IMG/VR virus record: IMGVR_UViG_2859827302_000008
Reading direction: 5' to 3' (one strand)
DNA length: 30,612 nucleotides
Source: a virus
Taxonomy: Duplodnaviria; Heunggongvirae; Uroviricota; Caudoviricetes
Shown: positions 1-10,696 of the stretch, piece after piece
How positions within the stretch are numbered: the stretch's first letter is position 1
Layout of the letters: each line of letters begins with the position of its first letter
Notes under the pieces: generated by a model
Database searches by the model: none
The model's input: the letters and a program-made list of their open reading frames with translations, nothing else
Told to the model about the DNA's origin: nothing
Position numbers and translations under genes: made by a program

Positions 1-660
<660 letters not shown>

Positions 661-663
661 CAC

Positions 664-1302
664 GCCAGAGTTTTATTTGAGATCGCAAACAGGGAGGTGG
701 CTTATTACAACATAAGGCAGGAGTTTAATTACTCAACTGAAATTACTGATTTCATGAAAGCGGTATATTTCCTGTATCTCAATCGTCACGGTTACCGTGG
801 TTTATGTCGCTATAACAAGAGCGGGCATTTCAACATTCCCTACGGCAATTATAAAAATCCGTATTTCCCTGAAAAAGAAATTCGCGCATTTGCAGAAAAA
901 GCCCAGCGAGCAACGTTTATCTGCGCCAGCTTTGATGAAACGCTGGCGATGTTGAAGGCGGGGGATGTGGTGTATTGCGATCCACCGTATGACGGTACGT
1001 TTTCCGGCTATCACACTGATGGTTTCACTGAAGATGACCAGTATCACCTAGCATCCGTTCTTGAACATCGGTCATCAGAAGGACATCCGGTCATTGTTTC
1101 TAACAGTGACACATCCCTGATCCGTTCGCTGTATTGCAATTTTACTCACCACTATATCAAGGTAAAACGCAGCATCGGTGTGGCAGCTGGCGAGGGTAAA
1201 TCAGCAACAGAAATCATTGCTGTTTCCGGGCCGCGCTGCTGGGTGGGATTTGATTATTCGCGTGGCGTGGATAGTTCTGCCGTGTACGGAGTACGTGCAT
1301 GA
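664..1302 (+). pseudogene. Dam-family N6-adenine DNA methyltransferase, 5'-truncated
   Basis: Translation aligns with the C-terminal two thirds of Dam (…[16 protein letters not shown]…, catalytic DPPY in VYCDPPYDG). The N-terminal SAM-binding region is absent. The stop overlaps the gene A start (ATGA at 1299..1302). Confidence 0.8.
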
Positions 1303-2823
1303 GCCATGCCGATATGAACAACTGCTGCGGCTTTAACGAGGCTGCCGCAGCGTTCTCATGGAACAGCCCGAAAAAGGCCATTAACCCTTATCTGGACCCG
1401 GCGGAAGTTGCGCCGGTTTCTGCGCTTTCAAACCTGATCACTCTGTACGCTGCCGATAACGAGCAGGAACAGTTGCGCCGCGAGGCACTGAGTGATCAGG
1501 TCTGGGAGCGTTATTTTTTTTATGAATCACGTGATCCTGTCCAGCACGAAATGGAGCAGGATAAGCTCATTAGCCGGGCAAAGCTGGCGCATGAGCAGCA
1601 GCGTTTTAATCCGGATATGGTCATTCTGGCGGACGTCAACGCCCAGCCTTCCCATATCAGCAAGCCGCTGATGCAACGTATTGAATACTTCAGCAGCCTA
1701 GGCAGGCCAAAGGCTTATTCCCGCTATTTACGTGAGACGATTAAGCCATGTCTGGAACGACTGGAGCATGTACGCGACAGCCAGCTATCTGCATCTTTTC
1801 GTTTTATGGCAAGCCATGTAGGGCTGGACGGCCTGCTGATTCTGCCTGAAATGAGTCAGGATCAGGTGAAACGCCTGTCTACCCTTGTCGCTGCGCATAT
1901 GAGCATGTGCCTTGATGCAGCTTGTGGTGATTTGTATGCCACCGATGACGTTAAGCCAGAAGAAATCCGCAAGACATGGGAAAAGGTGGCAGCGGAAACC
2001 CTGCGTCTGGATGTCATCCCGCCTGCGTTTGAGCTACTCCGTCGGAAAAGAAACCGCCGTAAACCCGTGCCCTATGAACTCATTCCGGGTTCGCTGGCGC
2101 GTATGTTGTGCGCCGACTGGTGGTACCGGAAATTATGGAAAATGCGTTGCGAATGGCGGGAAGAGCAGTTGCGTGCTGTCTGCCTGGTCAGCAAAAAAGC
2201 ATCTCCCTATGTCAGCTATGAAGCCGTGATGCATAAACGTGAGCAGCGCCGCAAGTCATTGGAGTTTTTCCGTTCTCATGAACTGGTGAACGAAGAGGGC
2301 GACACGCTGGATATGGAAGACGTGGTAAACGCCAGCAGCAGCAACCCGGCGCACCGCCGCAATGAGATGATGGCCTGTGTTAAAGGTCTGGAGCTTATCG
2401 CGGAAATGCGCGGTGACTGCGCCGTTTTCTACACCATTACCTGTCCGTCACGTTTCCATTCCACGCTCAATAACGGCAGACCAAACCCAACCTGGACAAA
2501 TGCGACGGTAAGACAAAGCAGCGATTATCTGGTCGGCATGTTTGCTGCATTTCGTAAGGCGATGCACAAAGCCGGGTTGCGCTGGTATGGCGTGCGGGTG
2601 GCTGAGCCGCATCATGACGGTACAGTTCACTGGCACCTGTTGTGTTTTATGCGCAAAAAAGACCGCCGCGCCATTACTGCATTGTTGCGTAAGTTTGCCA
2701 TCCGTGAAGACCGCGAGGAACTGGGTAATAACACTGGTCCACGCTTTAAATATGAGCTGATAAACCCGCGCAAAGGAACGCCGACAAGCTACATCGCGAA
2801 ATACATCAGTAAGAACATTGACG
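1299..2823 (+). pseudogene. A: P2-type replication initiation gene A, 5' part, interrupted by IS66-family element
   Basis: Translation carries rolling-circle initiator motifs (…[10 protein letters not shown]…, …[13 protein letters not shown]…, …[12 protein letters not shown]). The frame runs into the IS terminus at 2824. Confidence 0.85.
2816..2823. repeat. Target-site duplication CATTGACG, left copy
   Basis: Identical 8-mer immediately flanks both ends of the IS66-family element (2816..2823 and 5265..5272). Confidence 0.8.
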
Positions 2824-2915
2824 GTAAGCGTACAGCCTGAACCGTCTGGTCAGAATCTGACGAATTAGACAAAGTGGTGTCCACCAAATAAGTAGTGGGA
2901 ACCAAAGTGTCAGAT

Positions 2916-3296
2916 ATGCAGAAAAATGTGAATCCCGGCAGGCGAAAAGGCTGCCCTAATTATCCTCCCGAATTTAAACAGCAGCTCGTTGCTGCCTCCT
3001 GTGAACCCGGGATATCCATCTCAAAACTTGCTCTTGAAAATGGCATTAACGCCAATCTGTTGTTCAAATGGCGACAACAATGGCGCGAGGGAAAGCTGCT
3101 ATTACCTTCTTCAGAGAGCCCCCAGCTACTTCCTGTGACTCTCGATGCAGCTGCCGAACAGCCAGAATCGCTCGCAGAGGATCCGGAAACCCTCAGTATC
3201 AGCTGTGAGGTAACGTTCCGGCACGGGACGCTCCGCTTCAATGGCAATGTCAGCGAAAAGCTCCTGACTCTGCTGATACAGGAACTGAAGCGATGA
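2916..3296 (+). CDS. tnpA: IS66-family accessory protein TnpA
   Basis: First ORF inside the IS; start taken as ATG 2916 (ORF track uses GTG 2895). Stop overlaps the tnpB start (ATGA). Confidence 0.65.
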   Translation: MQKNVNPGRRKGCPNYPPEFKQQLVAASCEPGISISKLALENGINANLLFKWRQQWREGKLLLPSSESPQLLPVTLDAAAEQPESLAEDPETLSISCEVTFRHGTLRFNGNVSEKLLTLLIQELKR

Positions 3297-3640
3297 TCCC
3301 GTTACCTTCCGGGACCAAAATTTGGCTGGTTGCCGGTATCACCGATATGAGAAATGGCTTCAACGGCCTGGCGGCAAAGGTGCAGACGACGCTGAAAGAC
3401 GATCCGATGTCAGGTCACGTTTTTATCTTCCGTGGGCGTTATGGCAGTCAGGTAAAGCTCCTCTGGTCTACCGGCGATGGACTGTGTCTGCTGACCAAAC
3501 GGCTGGAGCGCGGCCGCTTCGCCTGGCCGTCAGCCCGGGATGGCAAAGTGTTCCTCACACCGGCACAGCTGGCGATGCTCCTTGAAGGTATCGACTGGCG
3601 GCAGCCTAAAAGACTGCTTACGTCCCTGACTATGTTGTAA
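3293..3640 (+). CDS. tnpB: IS66-family Orf2 (TnpB)
   Basis: 115-aa ORF in the conserved middle position of IS66 elements, translationally coupled to tnpA. Confidence 0.7.
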   Translation: MIPLPSGTKIWLVAGITDMRNGFNGLAAKVQTTLKDDPMSGHVFIFRGRYGSQVKLLWSTGDGLCLLTKRLERGRFAWPSARDGKVFLTPAQLAMLLEGIDWRQPKRLLTSLTML

Positions 3641-3688
3641 GCCTCTTTATCCTGGTCGACGCTGAATGAGCCTGGTAATATACCCGGT

Positions 3689-5227
3689 ATGAGCAGCTCA
3701 CTTCCTGACGATATCAATGCACTGAAACGTCTCCTTGCCGAACAGGAGGCGCTGAACCGTGCCCTGCTGGAAAAGCTGAACGAGCGTGAACGCGAAATAG
3801 ACCATCTGCAGGCACAGCTGGATAAGCTGCGCCGGATGAACTTCGGCAGCCGCTCCGAAAAAGTCTCCCGTCGTATCGCACAGATGGAAGCTGACCTGAA
3901 GGCACTTCAGAAAGAAAGTGATACCCTTACCGGTCGGGTTGACGACCCGGCCGTGCAGCGCCCGCTGCGTCAAACCCGCACCCGCAAACCGTTCCCCGAA
4001 TCACTCCCCCGCGATGAAAAACGGCTGCTGCCGGCAGCGTCATGCTGCCCGGAATGTGGAGGCTCACTGAGCTATCCGGGTGAGGATGCCGCCGAACAGC
4101 TGGAGTTGATGCGCAGCGTCTTCCGGGTTATCCGGACTGTACGTGAAAAGCATGCCTGTACTCAGTGCGATGCCATCGTGCAGGCCCCCGCGCCTTCACG
4201 GCCCATCGAGCGGGGTATCGCAGGACCGGGGCTGCTGGCCCGCGTGCTGATCTCAAAGTATGCAGAGCACACCCCGCTGTACCGCCAGTCTGAAATGTAC
4301 GGCCGCCAGGGCGTGGAGCTGAGTCGTTCACTGCTGTCGGGCTGGGTGGATGCATGCTGCCGGCTACTGTCACCGCTGGAAGAAGCGCTTCAGGATTATG
4401 TGCTGACTGACGGTAAGCTCCATGCTGATGACACGCCTGTCCCGGTGCTGTTGCCAGGCAATAAGAAAACGAAGACCGGGCGGTTATGGACCTACGTTCG
4501 TGACGACCGTAACGCCGGGTCAACGCTGGCGCCGGCGGTGTGGTTCGCTTACAGCCCGGACAGAAAAGGCATCCATCCGCAGACCCATCTTGCGGGGTTC
4601 AGTGGTGTACTGCAGGCGGATGCATACGCCGGGTTCAACGAGCTGTACCGGGATGGCCGGATAACGGAAGCCGCCTGTTGGGCTCACGCCCGCCGTAAAA
4701 TCCACGATGTGCACGTTCGCACCCCGTCAGCCCTGACGGAGGAAGCGCTGAAACGGATCGGCGAACTGTACGCCATCGAGGCAGAGATAAGGGGAATGAC
4801 GGCGGAGCAGCGCCTTGCCGAACGTCAGTTGAAAACGAAACCGCTGCTGAAATCCCTGGAAAGCTGGCTGCGTGAAAAGATGAAAACCCTGTCGCGACAC
4901 TCAGAACTGGCGAAAGCGTTCGCATACGCCCTGAACCAGTGGCCGGCGCTGACGTACTATGCAGATGATGGCTGGGCTGAGGCGGACAATAACATCGCTG
5001 AAAATGCGTTGCGGATGGTCAGTCTGGGCCGCAAAAACTACCTGTTCTTCGGTTCGGATCATGGAGGAGAGCGGGGAGCGCTGCTGTACAGCCTGATCGG
5101 GACGTGCAAACTGAACGGAGTGGAGCCAGAAAGCTACCTCCGCTATGTCCTTGACGTCATAGCCGACTGGCCGATAAACCGGGTCGGCGAACTGCTCCCC
5201 TGGCGCGTAGCACTGCCGACTGAATAA
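3689..5227 (+). CDS. tnpC: IS66-family transposase TnpC
   Basis: 512-aa ORF with N-terminal coiled-coil, CxxC…CxxC zinc-finger-like motif (CCPECGG…CTQCD) and DDE-type core, ending just inside the right inverted repeat. Confidence 0.85.
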
Positions 5228-5264
5228 CACATCCCCGTCAATACGGTTCTTGCTGCACGCTTAC

Positions 5265-5272
5265 CATTGACG
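5265..5272. repeat. Target-site duplication CATTGACG, right copy
   Basis: Exact copy of 2816..2823 immediately after the IS right end. Confidence 0.8.
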
Positions 5273-6162
5273 GGCGTGGTCTGGCTGGCGAGATCAGCAA
5301 GGAAACGGGTAAATCCCTGCGTGATAACGCTGAATACGTTAATCCCTGGGCGTCTCTGCATCGTGTTCAGCAATTCCGCTTCTTTGGTATTCCAGGGCGT
5401 CAGGCTTACCGTGAACTGCGGTTGTTGGCTGGTCAGGCGGCAAGGCAGCAGGGTGACAAAAAAGCAGGTGCGCCGGTACTGGATAACCCGCGCCTTGATG
5501 CCATCCTGGCTGCTGCTGATGCTGGCTGTTTTGCCACCTACATTATGAGGCAGGGCGGCGTGCTGGTTCCTCGCAAATATCACTTGATCAGAACCGCTTA
5601 TGAAATCAATGAAGAGCCGACCGCCTATGGCGATCACGGTATTCGTATTTATGGCATCTGGTCACCCATTGCAGAAGGCAAGATCTGCACTCATGCAGTG
5701 AAGTGGAAAATGGTTCGTAAAGCCGTTGACGTTCAGGAGGCGGCAGCCGACCAGGGCGCTTGCGCCCCTTGGACTCGTGGCAATAACTGTCCCCTTGCTG
5801 AAAATTTGAACCAACAGGAGAAAGATAAATCAGCTGATGGGAACCCCAGAACGGACATTACCAGCATGGATGACAAGGAGTTGCACGATTACCTGCACAG
5901 TATGAGCAAAAAAGAGCGCCGGGAACTGGCAGCAAGGTTACGCCTGGTGAAACCGAAACGGCGTAAAGACTACAAACAGCGAATTACAGACCATCAGCGA
6001 CTGCAGCTCGTGTATGAGCTGAAGTCCAGAGGATTTGATGGCAGCGAGAAAGAGGTCGATTTACTCCTTCGCGGAGGCAGTATTCCGTCAGGAGCAGGCC
6101 TGCGTATCTTCTATCGGAACCAGCGTTTGCAGGAAGATGATCAGTGGCGGAACCTATATTAA
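5273..6162 (+). pseudogene. A: P2-type replication initiation gene A, 3' part
   Basis: Joining 2823 to 5273 restores a continuous frame (…KNIDG|[25 protein letters not shown]…); downstream ORF to 6162 continues gpA-like sequence. Confidence 0.8.
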
Positions 6163-6882: not shown

Positions 6883-6908
6883 GCCCGCCAGAACTGGCGG
6901 GCTTTTGC
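6883..6908 (+). terminator. Rho-independent terminator after the dinI-like operon
   Basis: GC-rich hairpin GCCCGCC-agaact-GGCGGGC followed by TTTTG. Confidence 0.55.
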
Positions 6909-6969
6909 GTAGATCATGCAGGTGCATGAAAACCACTACATAAAGCGGGCAGGCGTGGCGGGGATACGA

Positions 6970-6997
6970 TTGCGCGCTAGGTATAAGTGTGTAAAAT
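6970..6997 (+). promoter_or_regulatory. Possible sigma70 promoter of the ATPase/HNH operon (-35 TTGCGC, -10 TAAAAT, 16-bp spacer)
   Basis: Hexamers read by eye about 45 bp upstream of ATG 7040; not supported by any other evidence. Confidence 0.25.
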
Positions 6998-7039: not shown

Positions 7040-8689
7040 ATGTTAGTCAAGAAAAATAAAAATTATAGTTTATATTTTTTAATTACAAATAATCAACAGA
7101 TATCTGATTCTGGTAATTATATAAAAATAGTCCCATCAAGAAGCGATTGGAATGATTTTGGATATTTGAGTAGAGTCGAAATATCTATTTTTAATAAAAA
7201 AGAGTGTAAGGATATAATTTCACTGAATGGTTATATTGGTTTTTTGAATTCAGAGGAGGAACGAAATGGAAAAGCAGAACTGATAAGGCGAGTGAAAAAA
7301 AAGGAAGAATCTAATTTAAAGGATGAGGGGTTTAATGATTATTTTGTCATGCTTCAGGATATGAATAATTATCGAAGACTAGTAAGATTTTTTGGGGTGA
7401 ATGAATCCAAATATATATTAAATTTCATTAATGATGTTGTTTCTAAGAAAAGTGACGCTAGTGCAGAGAATTTGAGGAAAAAAGCAATCTCTTCTGATAT
7501 CTTTAATAAATCTTTCATTAGAGAGTCTGAGTCGTATTTTACTTTCAAAAATGCAGGAACAGTTCTTTCCGGTATTCAATATGAGGAGTTGGGTAATTTA
7601 TCACAGCACATCAAGATTAGCTATTCGAATAAAGTTAATGAAGAAGATGTATCTTATGTTTTTAATTTTGATCACGAGCATGATTTACCAAAAAGAATTT
7701 CCATAATTATAGGCGAGAATGGTGTAGGAAAAAGCCAAACGCTTAGAGAAATCGCATTGGCTGCGATTAAAGGAAAGGATAATTTGGTGGCTGTAGTTGA
7801 TTCTAACGGTGTGAGCATTGAAGAACGAATTCAAATTAGTAGGCTCATTGCTTTTTCTCCAACAAATGAAAGTAAGTGTTCATTTCCAACCGATAAAAGA
7901 ATAAAATCATTGATATGGTACAAAAGATTGACTTTAAATCGTGAATCAAAATCCAAATTAAACTTGAATGATTTAATAGTGCAACTAGCGAGGAGTAACG
8001 ACGCTATCGGCTATAATCAAAGGTGGAATATATTTGTTGATGCACTGAGTGTTCTAAATAGTAACAACGATTTAGTAATCAAATGTGGCGGTGAAAATTC
8101 ACCATTTGTTAAATTAAATGAGCTTAATTCTCGAGGCGAAGAATCTAGACTATCATTATATTCTGAAATTATTCTCTCTGGCGAGCCTTTGAGGCTTATT
8201 GAAAATAAATGTTACCCTTTGAGTAGTGGGGAAATATCGTTTATTAAGTTTTGTGTACAAGTCTGTTTGTATATTGAGAATGGGACTCTTCTATTAATAG
8301 ATGAGCCAGAAACACATCTCCATCCTTCATTTATTAATAAATTTATGGCATTGCTTGATAATTTATTAGAAAAGACAGGCTCTTCAGCTATCATAGCAAC
8401 GCATTCGGTTTATCTTGTTCGGGAGGTTTTTAAGGAGCAAGTGACAATACTCAGAAGACGAGATGATGGGGTAATTGTTAGCGAAAAACCGAGATTGAGT
8501 ACTTTTGGGGCGAATATAGGAAATATCTCATATTTTGTTTTCGGTGAGAGTGAACCAACTCAAATTTTAAATAAAGTAAAAAACAATATAATTGCAAAGA
8601 ATATGTCTTGGGATGATGTTGAATCTAAATATAGCGAGGACTTATCACTTAATGTATTAACTGCGTTGAGAAATGAAATGGGCAATTGA
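7040..8689 (+). CDS. ABC-type (AAA_15/AAA_21-like) ATPase with unassigned ~220-aa N-terminal domain; candidate defence ATPase (PtuA-like)
   Basis: 549-aa ORF with GAGAGGG ribosome-binding site. Walker A GENGVGKS (aa ~225-232), signature-like LSSGE (~395), Walker B LLLIDEPE (~417-424), H-loop ATHS (~453). Gene is strongly AT-rich. Confidence 0.85.
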   Translation: MLVKKNKNYSLYFLITNNQQISDSGNYIKIVPSRSDWNDFGYLSRVEISIFNKKECKDIISLNGYIGFLNSEEERNGKAELIRRVKKKEESNLKDEGFNDYFVMLQDMNNYRRLVRFFGVNESKYILNFINDVVSKKSDASAENLRKKAISSDIFNKSFIRESESYFTFKNAGTVLSGIQYEELGNLSQHIKISYSNKVNEEDVSYVFNFDHEHDLPKRISIIIGENGVGKSQTLREIALAAIKGKDNLVAVVDSNGVSIEERIQISRLIAFSPTNESKCSFPTDKRIKSLIWYKRLTLNRESKSKLNLNDLIVQLARSNDAIGYNQRWNIFVDALSVLNSNNDLVIKCGGENSPFVKLNELNSRGEESRLSLYSEIILSGEPLRLIENKCYPLSSGEISFIKFCVQVCLYIENGTLLLIDEPETHLHPSFINKFMALLDNLLEKTGSSAIIATHSVYLVREVFKEQVTILRRRDDGVIVSEKPRLSTFGANIGNISYFVFGESEPTQILNKVKNNIIAKNMSWDDVESKYSEDLSLNVLTALRNEMGN

Positions 8690-9554
8690 AATGAATAAAT
8701 TAAAAAGACCTGTTTTTAAAGATTATTCTGCATTTAAAAAACTATCTGCAAATAAGAGATTAAAACATCATTCTGTTCTGAATGGACAGGATACATTTAT
8801 ACTTAATGCATATAGATCGTACATAAAGAATAAAGGGTATCTTAATGTCAATTCTTGTGGCGTATTGAGTAACAATATTGCTGAAGCTTTGAGATATTAT
8901 TATAACAATCCCGCAAAGTGTTTATCTATAATTGATGATATAAGAGCAGCTAATTCTAACTCTCTATGTCCAATGTGTGGTTCAATGCATAGCGGGACTT
9001 TGGATCATGTTTTACCCAAGGAAAACTATCCAGAATTTTCTTTATTCACTAAGAATTTGGTTCCTGCTTGCAAATGTAATACTTTCAAAAGTACTACTAT
9101 AGCTAATTCTGCAGGCCATCGGATGCTGCATCCATATTTTGATAATATATTAAAACAAAGATTAATATGTGCTAATTTTTCTAAATTAGGGCGAACACCT
9201 ACAATTGATGTAAAAATCATAATTGACCCAATGTCACCAGAATATAACAATGTTAAGTATCATCTTGATAATGTTGTTATCAAGAATAATATTAAGGGGT
9301 ATTTGTCTGAACAATGGGAGTCGTTTTACTTATATCCTGAGCTTGTTATTAGAGGACTGAATAAGAGTCTTTCTACTTATAGCGATGTATATGAGTTGTT
9401 GACTCGCGAGTTGTTGCTGTTGGATGAAAAACATAAAGGTAAAAATAATTGGAATTCGGTTTTTGTAGCTGGGTTAATTCGACCTGATGTGATTAGGTGG
9501 ATACTCTGTGAATTACATTTAGGTAACAGAAGTCCAGACGGTCGTCTCATATGA
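8673..9554 (+). CDS. HNH-family nuclease (His-Me finger with Cys4 zinc site); candidate defence effector (PtuB-like)
   Basis: 293-aa ORF overlapping the ATPase stop by 17 nt (alternative start ATG 8691 directly after the stop). Motif CPMCGS…GTLDHVLPKEN…NLVPACKCN…H matches the CxxC…DH…N…CxCN HNH layout. Confidence 0.8.
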   Translation: MKWAIEMNKLKRPVFKDYSAFKKLSANKRLKHHSVLNGQDTFILNAYRSYIKNKGYLNVNSCGVLSNNIAEALRYYYNNPAKCLSIIDDIRAANSNSLCPMCGSMHSGTLDHVLPKENYPEFSLFTKNLVPACKCNTFKSTTIANSAGHRMLHPYFDNILKQRLICANFSKLGRTPTIDVKIIIDPMSPEYNNVKYHLDNVVIKNNIKGYLSEQWESFYLYPELVIRGLNKSLSTYSDVYELLTRELLLLDEKHKGKNNWNSVFVAGLIRPDVIRWILCELHLGNRSPDGRLI

Positions 9555-9564
9555 TTTTTTGCAT

Positions 9565-9590
9565 CTTCAGCGTGTATCTGCACGCTGAAG
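9565..9590. other. Perfect 10-bp inverted repeat (stem-loop) between convergent HNH gene and portal gene
   Basis: CTTCAGCGTG-tatctg-CACGCTGAAG. A T-run precedes it on the plus strand, but no U-tract follows it on either strand, so it is not a canonical terminator. Confidence 0.4.
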
Positions 9591-9661: not shown

Positions 9662-10696
9662 TTAAGTAGCTAGTTTATAACTATCAAATTTAACAATGTT
9701 CTCACTTACCAATTTATTTATTTCCATCATTCTTTTTTGTAACGGTATTAACTCGTTACGTACAAACACCAGGCTCGCCTTCTCCACATCCCCAAACCCC
9801 CCGACATTATTAGGCATAATCCCCATCATTTGCGGTGGCACACGATGCGCCGCCATCATGTCATCCCGGCTCACGTTCTTGATGTTCAGAAACTCATCCT
9901 TCGCCGCGACTTCTGACAACGGGATGATCTGAAGCCCGTCCTTTTTGCCGTTAGGCGAGTACATAAACAGATTGCGGAAGTTACCTGGTCCTTTGGCGCT
10001 TTTCATCGCATTGCGGAGGTTGTTCACATCCTCCTGGTTTTGCGCGGCATCGGTCATGTACATGATGAAGCCTGCATGACTGCCGTTAATGTAATACTAT
10101 CGGCGGAACAGCGTGGCGGACTCGTTGAGCAGGGCTGACGGAATGGCAGAAAGGTAACCTGGCAGGCCGTAGATCTCTTGGTTGATGTCCGGTTCCATCA
10201 GATGAAAGATGCTTCCTTTCGTGAACTGATACGGCTGCGTGGTCATGCCGTATTGCACAAACCAGTAGGTATCCAGGTCTAATCCGCGTCGGGTGTATTT
10301 TGCCAGAGCAGGCTCAAGAGCGATGACCTCTCCGAACCGGTTTGTGCGTTTCTCCAGGTAAGCGTTACCAAATACCAGATAATCCTGCACAAAACGTGAA
10401 AAAGCCTGCTGGCTGAGCAGCGGGTGAGGGATGTAGGTACTGATCAGAATGTTGCATTTCACCGCAATTGGTGAACTGTGATGCACGGCGGCGCGGAAGG
10501 TGCGCGCCAGTCCGTCAAAACTCACTGGCGGCTCATACCAGCGATCTGTCTGTACGCATTCCACATAGTCCAGTAGTTCACGGCGGTCCAGAACCGGAAC
10601 GGGATCGCCGAAGCTGAATGCTTCGGCTGAAGTCTGGTTTTTATGCTGGGTCTGTTTCGTCGCCGCAGCGCGGTTCTTCTTACTCTTTCCCATCAA
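9662..10696 (-). pseudogene. Q: P2-type portal protein gene Q with one in-frame amber codon (TAG at 10097..10099)
   Basis: Two minus-strand ORFs (10097..10696 and 9662..10063) share one frame and are separated only by the TAG plus 11 sense codons. Combined length (~344 codons) fits a P2-type portal. Confidence 0.85.

Follow-up and report, generated by a model that had tools for sequence, protein, structure and literature searches.

What lies ahead of the nucleotide-binding site in an ATPase whose Walker A motif begins more than 220 residues from its start? The question is raised by a protein of 549 amino acids (aa) encoded in a stretch of viral DNA of 30,612 nucleotides (nt), referred to here as the window, which is held as IMG/VR virus record IMGVR_UViG_2859827302_000008 and assigned to the Caudoviricetes. 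The gene is followed by that of an HNH nuclease, and the two form a cassette within a P2-like prophage. A preliminary description, made from the letters of the window, had placed the P-loop of the ATPase at residues ~225-232 and had taken the ~220 residues ahead of it for an unassigned domain, rich in Lys, Asn and Ser, that might distinguish this protein from canonical PtuA-like ATPases with a short N-terminus. The analysis presented here shows that residues 1 to ~186 are an alpha/beta domain that folds independently, is restricted to one family and fronts a PtuA-like OLD-type ABC ATPase. The gene and its leading parts are as follows.

7040..8689, plus strand: ATPase gene (549 aa; from the listing of open reading frames (ORFs)), PADLOC PDC-M01A, PtuA-like ABC ATPase
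7040..7597, plus strand: N-terminal domain, residues 1-186, a beta-rich half followed by a helical half
7598..7711, plus strand: beta-strands of the ABC fold before the P-loop, residues 187-224, placed by the model strands and the SMC_N and EF3A profile matches
7712..7735, plus strand: Walker A motif or P-loop GENGVGKS, residues 225-232, with G225, N227, G228, G230 and K231 invariant in 101 sequences

An independently folding N-terminal domain

A regular-expression search of the 549-aa translation for G-x4-GK[ST] returned GENGVGKS at residues 225-232 as its sole match, so that the position proposed earlier for the P-loop holds. The start codon is credible as well, since the RefSeq annotation of a 99.7%-identical E. 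coli locus gives the same start and 549-aa product, a Shine-Dalgarno-like GAGAGGG is located 5 nt 5' of the ATG, and in phmmer searches the alignments with relatives in other genera begin at residue ~4-30. The exact protein is present on 694 contigs of Shigella, E. coli and Salmonella, where its name is always 'AAA family ATPase'.

To place the border between this region and the ATPase proper we drew on an AlphaFold2 model of the full-length protein, built from a 45-sequence alignment (mean predicted local distance difference test score (pLDDT) 78.6, predicted template modelling score (pTM) 0.70). In this model beta-strands 190-196, 203-209 and 220-225 are followed by the P-loop helix 231-244. 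An antiparallel sheet ahead of Walker A is usual in ABC ATPases. Given these strands from ~190 onward, a Pfam SMC_N match that starts at residue 213 and a match of the family profile to EF3A chains in the PDB that starts at position 176, the extra domain comprises residues 1 to ~186 and not 1-220. The distinct domain of the preliminary description is thus real, while its extent has to be reduced: residues ~187-224, and only these, turned out to belong to a standard ATPase fold.

Modelled alone with AlphaFold2, residues 1-188 reached a pLDDT of 88.0 and a pTM of 0.85. The beta-rich half of the domain is modelled with strands 2-5, 10-13, 27-32, 45-51, 59-68 and 101-105 and helix 77-91, and the helical half with helices 108-129, 140-150, 153-159, 163-175 and 180-184. 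Pfam gave no match to ATPase residues 1-223 even at E<=1, and over 48 diverse N-terminal domains of the family no Pfam family was matched by more than one member. NCBIfam returned only noise on the domain, the domain profile had no match among PDB sequences (best E 0.6), and a Foldseek search of BFVD with the domain yielded nothing at E<=0.001. The domain matches no described family or solved structure, the comparison of folds covering the PDB and BFVD. That no motif could be recognised in the region by eye is borne out by these searches, and the structure prediction and similarity search proposed at that time delivered a confident fold with no described match in the PDB or BFVD.

The Lys/Asn/Ser richness is correct as a figure for residues 1-220 (N 10.9%, S 10.9%, K 10.0%) but is not a property of the domain. 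Together the three residues make up 32% of the domain here, the top value among 105 family members, whose median is 21%. Likewise, the domain is basic in this protein (isoelectric point (pI) 9.0, net charge +4), whereas the family domain is acidic (median pI 5.6). Both features are due to AT-rich DNA, the part encoding the domain having a guanine-plus-cytosine (GC) content of 28.5%, and reflect a bias of the lineage rather than a family trait.

A phmmer search with residues 1-220 against 1.84 billion cluster representatives identified 153 relatives at E<=1e-3, of which 101 reached E<=1e-10. With few exceptions these carry the domain at the N-terminus of proteins of 530-580 aa. For 215 of the 219 full-length relatives, Walker A was found within positions 190-250. 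These counts, together with the steady position of Walker A, indicate conservation of the N-terminal domain far beyond chance. In genomes of Arthrobacter, Prevotella and Gracilibacteria, tblastn gave matches whose first query residue is 30-37, which extends the domain across phyla. The family as a whole occurs in Pseudomonadota, Bacteroidota, Verrucomicrobiota, Myxococcota, Actinomycetota, Elusimicrobia and Gracilibacteria, with at least 434 confirmed matches in species-representative genomes of several phyla, and also on 25 IMG/VR viral contigs.

Conservation within the domain was assessed in alignments of 105 diverse N-terminal domains, of 101 sequences and of 48 sequences. The segments that stand out are these.

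7148..7159, plus strand: WNDF motif, W37 N38 D39 F40, in the loop after strand 3 (W 82%, N 82%, D 90%, F 87%; n=105)
7370..7375, plus strand: Y111-R112 at the start of the long helix (Y111 invariant in all three alignments; R112 88%)
7433..7435, plus strand: D132 in an N-D motif after helix 108-129 (D 98%; n=105)
7502..7585, plus strand: residues 155-182, the most conserved block of the domain, just ahead of the ABC fold, with the consensus F..SF.R.SE.FFAF.NA..IL.GL..E
7181..7339, plus strand: residues 48-100, a variable indel-rich segment made up of a beta-hairpin, helix 77-91 and a loop (entropy 3.28)

D39 is at least 90% conserved in the 101-sequence alignment too, and the conserved residues of block 155-182 are F155 (96%), R161 (95%), G178 (90%) and E182 (85%), along with N171, A172 and L176 (n=105). 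Column entropy is 2.1-2.5 for segments 26-47, 101-135 and 153-186, the last of which, at 2.13, matches the N-lobe of the ATPase at 2.15, and rises to 3.1-3.4 in the variable segments 1-25, 48-100 and 136-152. Segment 48-100 moreover has a gap fraction of 0.11 and a mean of 4.3 inserted residues. As read from these alignments, the conservation of the domain is a mosaic of a conserved core and a putative variable, indel-rich surface.

Four longer relatives of 705-812 aa (P0191, P0198, P0206 and P0218) carry extra modules ahead of the N-terminal domain, namely AbiJ_NTD3 (E=5e-50), DUF4062 (E=9e-12 and 2e-7) and a weak MrcB_N-like region (E=0.1), a hint that the family has elaborated its N-terminal end by adding modules. 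Conversely, PADLOC PDC-M01A models of 388 and 435 positions align with the ATPase only from residue ~194. Some relatives thus lack the domain, an addition confined to part of the family. Isolated N-terminal domains match five PDC-M01A models (10-40 of 48 members each) and the PtuA1 model PDLC00282 (13 of 48); the domain architecture is already contained in existing defence-finder models, though the domain itself is nowhere described.

A PtuA-like ATPase paired with an HNH nuclease

The remaining features of the ATPase and those of its partner gene are listed here.

8219..8233, plus strand: ABC signature LSSGE, residues 394-398, with S395 and G397 invariant; aligns to the UvrA signature region
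8288..8323, plus strand: Walker B motif with the OLD/PtuA-type His pair, LLLIDEPETHLH, residues 417-428, including D421, E422, H426 and H428
8561..8686, plus strand: C-terminal three-helix tail, residues 508-549, with helices 508-519, 524-531 and 537-548 in the model
8691..9554, plus strand: zinc-finger HNH nuclease gene, PADLOC PDC-M01B, 287 aa, 1 nt after the ATPase gene (8689/8691)
8967..9131, plus strand: HNH catalytic core motif C93-x2-C96 ... D105-H106 ... N122 ... C127-x-C129-N130 ... H147

Behind the N-terminal domain, the body of the ATPase is PtuA-like. In a Foldseek search against the PDB the best 33 matches were all PtuA chains (retron Ec83, retron Eco7/Ec78 and E. coli Septu), with E-values of 2e-8 to 2e-6 and a probability of 1.00; the TM-scores of these matches are low, 0.25-0.34, because the domain make-up differs. 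PADLOC PDC-M01A matches residues 27-539 (E=3.2e-55) and PtuA1 PDLC00282, a model without a curated threshold, residues 32-535 (E=1e-31). Pfam AAA_21 covers residues 221-460 only, and sequence similarity to solved PtuA is limited to the C-lobe (E ~2e-3). The NCBIfam PtuA equivalog NF041760, which was built on retron-type proteins, scored 41.1 bits against a cut-off of 500. E422, P423 and H428 are invariant in 101 sequences. They are part of a DEPETHLH motif whose two histidines follow the glutamate at E+4 and E+6, and H455 is present as well. This spacing equals that of E396, H400 and H402 in retron-Eco7 PtuA, which stabilise the nucleotide-bound dimer (PMC12673091). The three-helix C-terminal domain of Eco7 PtuA binds PtuB (PMC12673091), and by analogy the C-terminal tail here is a likely docking site for the HNH partner.

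A coiled-coil or dimerisation insert between the ATPase lobes was not found, the predicted structure having no long helices at residues 245-390. The longest helix between Walker A and Walker B has at most 18 residues, helices between Walker A and the signature have at most 10 (309-318, 328-336 and 367-376), and the Walker A lysine K231 and the Walker B aspartate D421 are 190 residues apart.

The HNH partner was identified by PADLOC PDC-M01B (E=1.2e-33) and PHROG 10378, 'HNH endonuclease' (E=3e-22). C93, C96, H106, N122, C127, C129 and N130 are present in every one of 79 partner sequences. Neighbours were surveyed in 79 species-representative loci and four others, two of all these loci meeting a contig end, and in each of the 81 assessable loci the gene right after the ATPase was an HNH homologue. 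Judged by gene order and residue conservation, the HNH partner is obligate and its catalytic motif is predicted to be intact. About 90 residues precede its CxxC motif. Comparison with solved PtuB chains gave no sequence match, and NCBIfam TIGR02646 (retron HNH), again a model built on retron-type proteins, reached 13.1 bits against a cut-off of 52. Searching the literature by accession turned up no paper on the two proteins.

Between the two genes of relatives there is typically a 4-nt overlap or no gap at all (median gap -3), an arrangement that fits translational coupling. In the window the HNH gene has an alternative in-frame ATG at 8673, which would add six residues to the protein and make its gene overlap with the ATPase stop by 17 nt; a 293-aa form is found in some database records, and RefSeq places the start at 8691 (287 aa).

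The ATPase-HNH pair is a Septu-like two-gene module and corresponds to the PADLOC candidate PDC-M01, both genes matching the A and B hidden Markov models and being adjacent. PDC-M01 also takes in the ATPase models of 388 and 435 positions that are devoid of the N-terminal domain, and it comes with no description of that domain or of a function. With stand-alone Septu (PDB 8EE4/8EEA/8SUX; Ec-B88), whose PtuA chains are among the best structural matches, the pair shares the ATPase-first operon with the zinc-finger HNH nuclease gene immediately downstream, the Walker A, signature and Walker B motifs with the OLD/PtuA-type histidines (DEPETHLH here), and the location on mobile elements, here a prophage hotspot; the ATPase here ends in the three-helix tail.

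The two differ in the arrangement of the ATPase. In Septu Ec-B88 the Walker A lysine is K43 and the Walker B residue D316 (PMC13096335), and Eco7 PtuA has a 63-residue N-terminal domain, Walker A at 93-100 and Walker B at 391-396 (PMC12673091), while Walker A is found at 225-232 here. This late position is due to the ~186-aa N-terminal domain, which is absent from stand-alone PtuA. The protein was therefore rightly set apart from canonical PtuAs with a short N-terminus, but its architecture is not unique, being that of a large family within PADLOC models. Walker A and Walker B are 190 residues apart here versus 273 in Ec-B88 (K43/D316) and 296 in Eco7 PtuA (K99/D395), and the model contains nothing like the coiled-coil insert of PtuA, which in Eco7 (residues 255-310) mediates PtuA-PtuA contacts (PMC12673091). 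The Walker A position, the 190-residue spacing and the short helices imply that this branch gained a ~186-aa N-terminal domain, apparently without the coiled-coil insert. The HNH partner differs as well, having 287 aa versus 216 aa in Eco7 PtuB (PMC12673091) and forming a PADLOC group of its own, PDC-M01B.

The PtuA proteins of type I-A retrons (Eco7/Ec78 and Ec83) likewise have ~550 aa and an added N-terminal element. This extension binds the reverse transcriptase and the non-coding RNA and is needed for defence (PMC12673091, PMC12819146), it is absent from stand-alone PtuA (PMC12819146, PMC12673091), and PtuAB has been described as re-purposed by elements added to a constant ATPase core (PMC12819146). 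The retron element consists of 63 residues in three helices and two strands, in contrast to the ~186 residues of different topology here, and the coiled-coil/helical flap of retron PtuA is absent from our model. Assignment as a type I-A retron effector module was rejected, the neighbours being a DinI-like gene upstream and a portal gene downstream; no reverse transcriptase was found among the genes of the window, of the annotated locus or of the inspected loci of relatives, loci that had been gathered by the ATPase-HNH pair. Identity with PD-T4-4/WonAB was also rejected, since PD-T4-4_B and WonB are PD-(D/E)xK proteins (PMC12137116) and the partner here is an HNH zinc-finger protein.

P2 Old, PARIS AriA and Gabija GajA are likewise ABC ATPases with OLD-type motif deviations that act as sensor or regulator of a nuclease, and Old and PARIS sit in P2/P4 hotspots (PMC9122126). 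The PADLOC AriA and ATPase-Toprim models match the ATPase weakly (E ~1e-14). In this group the effector is a TOPRIM or DUF4435 domain, whereas it is a separate HNH protein here, and the N-terminal domain has no counterpart in Old, AriA or GajA.

Possible roles of the N-terminal domain

We propose that the N-terminal domain is a regulatory or trigger-sensing input module of the Septu-like pair, an explanation that, taken as a whole, we consider evenly poised between right and wrong. As is the case for other PtuA/OLD ATPases, ATP would bring two ATPase heads together as a dimer, and the HNH nuclease would be held by the three-helix tail at the C-terminus. The domain core, formed by the WNDF loop, Y111-R112, D132 and the helical block 155-182 beside the ABC fold, would couple to the ATPase, and the variable beta-hairpin/helix surface 48-100 would contact an infection cue or a partner. 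Inputs through the domain would then determine at what point the nuclease may cleave DNA or tRNA, with abortive infection as the outcome. This regulatory reading draws on the analogy with the N-terminal extension of retron PtuA, which binds the reverse transcriptase and the non-coding RNA, and on the mosaic conservation, which fits a conserved coupling core and a variable recognition surface; the AbiJ_NTD3 and DUF4062 modules ahead of the domain in a few relatives are in keeping with the N-terminus as an input end. The sensor or partner-binding role suggested in the preliminary description would draw its backing from the retron analogy.

Several observations weigh against a sensing role. The conserved segments of the domain match the ATPase N-lobe in conservation, and their motifs are kept from Pseudomonadota to Actinomycetota; a constant intramolecular or assembly role therefore fits better than recognition of fast-evolving phage proteins. 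The domain could simply replace the assembly function of the seemingly missing coiled-coil insert of the modelled ATPase. That its fold has no known counterpart holds for the PDB and BFVD, and PDC-M01 is an unpublished computational candidate (Payne et al.) that overlaps the Septu calls of other tools (PMC11811056).

The principal rival explanation takes up these points and sees the domain as an assembly scaffold, which would make ATPase-ATPase contacts as the coiled-coil insert of PtuA does and set the ATPase-HNH stoichiometry. The presence of only short helices between the modelled lobes, the K231-D421 spacing of 190 residues against 273 in Ec-B88 and 296 in Eco7 PtuA with its coiled coil 255-310, and the strong conservation of the core motifs across phyla all favour it, and the mosaic conservation is compatible with it too; the variable, indel-rich segment 48-100 and the modules fused ahead of the domain are, however, more typical of an input end, and we regard a scaffold as possible while leaning against it. 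A bolder form of the sensing explanation appears doubtful to us. According to it, the undescribed fold is the infection-sensing input of a distinct Septu branch in which the coiled-coil element was exchanged for the domain; the polar cluster N38, D39, Y111, R112, D132, R161, N171 and E182 would be a pocket for a conserved small-molecule, nucleotide or peptide cue, or a catalytic site, and the 48-100 surface would tune specificity.

It is rather improbable that the domain docks onto or masks family-specific parts of the HNH partner and so keeps the nuclease inactive until an ATP-driven rearrangement. The strict co-occurrence with a ~287-aa HNH protein in 81 of 81 loci speaks for such an arrangement, as does the partner itself, which is longer than Eco7 PtuB, has ~90 residues before CxxC, does not match solved PtuB and forms its own PDC-M01B group; yet a docking site is already at hand in the three-helix C-terminal tail, which resembles the PtuB-binding domain. 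Binding of nucleic acid (DNA ends, tRNA or phage DNA) by the domain, bringing substrate to the HNH nuclease, would suit PtuAB systems, which act on DNA and on tRNA-Tyr (PMC12819146, PMC13096335), and the basic character of the domain in this protein (pI 9.0, net charge +4), but is disfavoured by the acidic family median of 5.6 and very improbable. Finally, an explanation without any separate domain, in which the region would belong to the normal ABC fold or the long N-terminus would stem from a wrong start or a gene fusion, is refuted. Residues ~187-224 do belong to the ABC fold, and one cluster representative is listed at 537 aa. The first residues of this representative, however, are likewise MLVKKNKNY, the RefSeq start is identical, residues 1-186 fold confidently alone and are conserved from residue ~4-30 onward in relatives of many phyla, and the PDC-M01A profiles without the domain (388 and 435 positions) align only from ~194.

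Genomic setting and significance

The cassette has a GC content of 32% versus 52% for the window and is located between a gpA remnant and DinI-like gene upstream and the portal gene gpQ downstream in a P2-like prophage. A Phage_GPA match to gpA was obtained upstream of the cassette (E=6e-128), and portal and terminase genes follow downstream. The gpA-gpQ interval of P2 prophages is a variable defence hotspot (Rousset et al. 2022, PMC9122126). The cassette is low-GC mobile-element cargo of this hotspot: it was found in 3 of 5,426 complete E. coli genomes, against ~1,200 for the flanking 90 bases. Among the loci of relatives, one is in an integrative and conjugative element next to type IV secretion genes and one in an integrase-linked island.

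At 90-97% identity, the ~90 bases at 6900..6990, 5' of the cassette, also occur in ~1,200 E. coli genomes, Fels-2, RE2010 and many Klebsiella P2-like phages, which is not the case for the cassette; by this comparison, 6900..6990 is the predicted left boundary of the variable hotspot. On the other side, a perfect 10-bp inverted repeat, CTTCAGCGTG / CACGCTGAAG, with a 6-nt loop is situated at 9565..9590, between the ends of the HNH and portal genes. It has TTTTTT ahead of it and no canonical downstream T-run on either strand, and is absent from the output of the terminator scan. Promoter and terminator scans of the region performed no better than on shuffled sequence.

Other genes of the prophage carry lesions. 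The portal gene gpQ (9662..10696, minus strand) is split into two ORFs, 9662..10063 and 10097..10696, and is a pseudogene, since, compared with its intact counterpart in E. coli UPEC-245U, a single T-to-A change (around 10099) introduces a premature stop. In the gpA region (1299..6162) an ORF with the Phage_GPA domain (1299..2840) is followed by an IS66-family element, which comprises an HTH_Tnp_1 ORF (2895..3296) and a 512-aa IS66 transposase (3689..5227), and then by ORF 5422..6162, which by position takes the place of the gpA 3' end in an intact relative; the gpA gene appears to be interrupted. At the start of the window a fragment of an integrase-core (rve) transposase (1..654) lies next to a Dam methylase ORF of the D12 class (697..1302) whose profile match is confined to positions 87-253, and a second insertion sequence (IS) may have truncated this prophage methylase. 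The prophage looks defective and the ATPase-HNH cassette intact, and the pattern of lesions fits an IS-rich genome of the Shigella type.

The kind of system is a known one, and what is new lies in its altered architecture and in a domain not described before. Since both the system type and the hotspot were on record already, the practical impact is modest. A new Pfam/InterPro domain entry would nevertheless be justified, by which these proteins would no longer be just 'AAA family ATPase'. Pairs of an ABC ATPase and a nuclease (Old, Gabija, PARIS, Septu and retron I-A) make up a major class of phage defence whose sensing of infection is largely unexplained, and this family offers a clean case for asking what effect the addition of a domain has on sensing or assembly in a Septu-like system.

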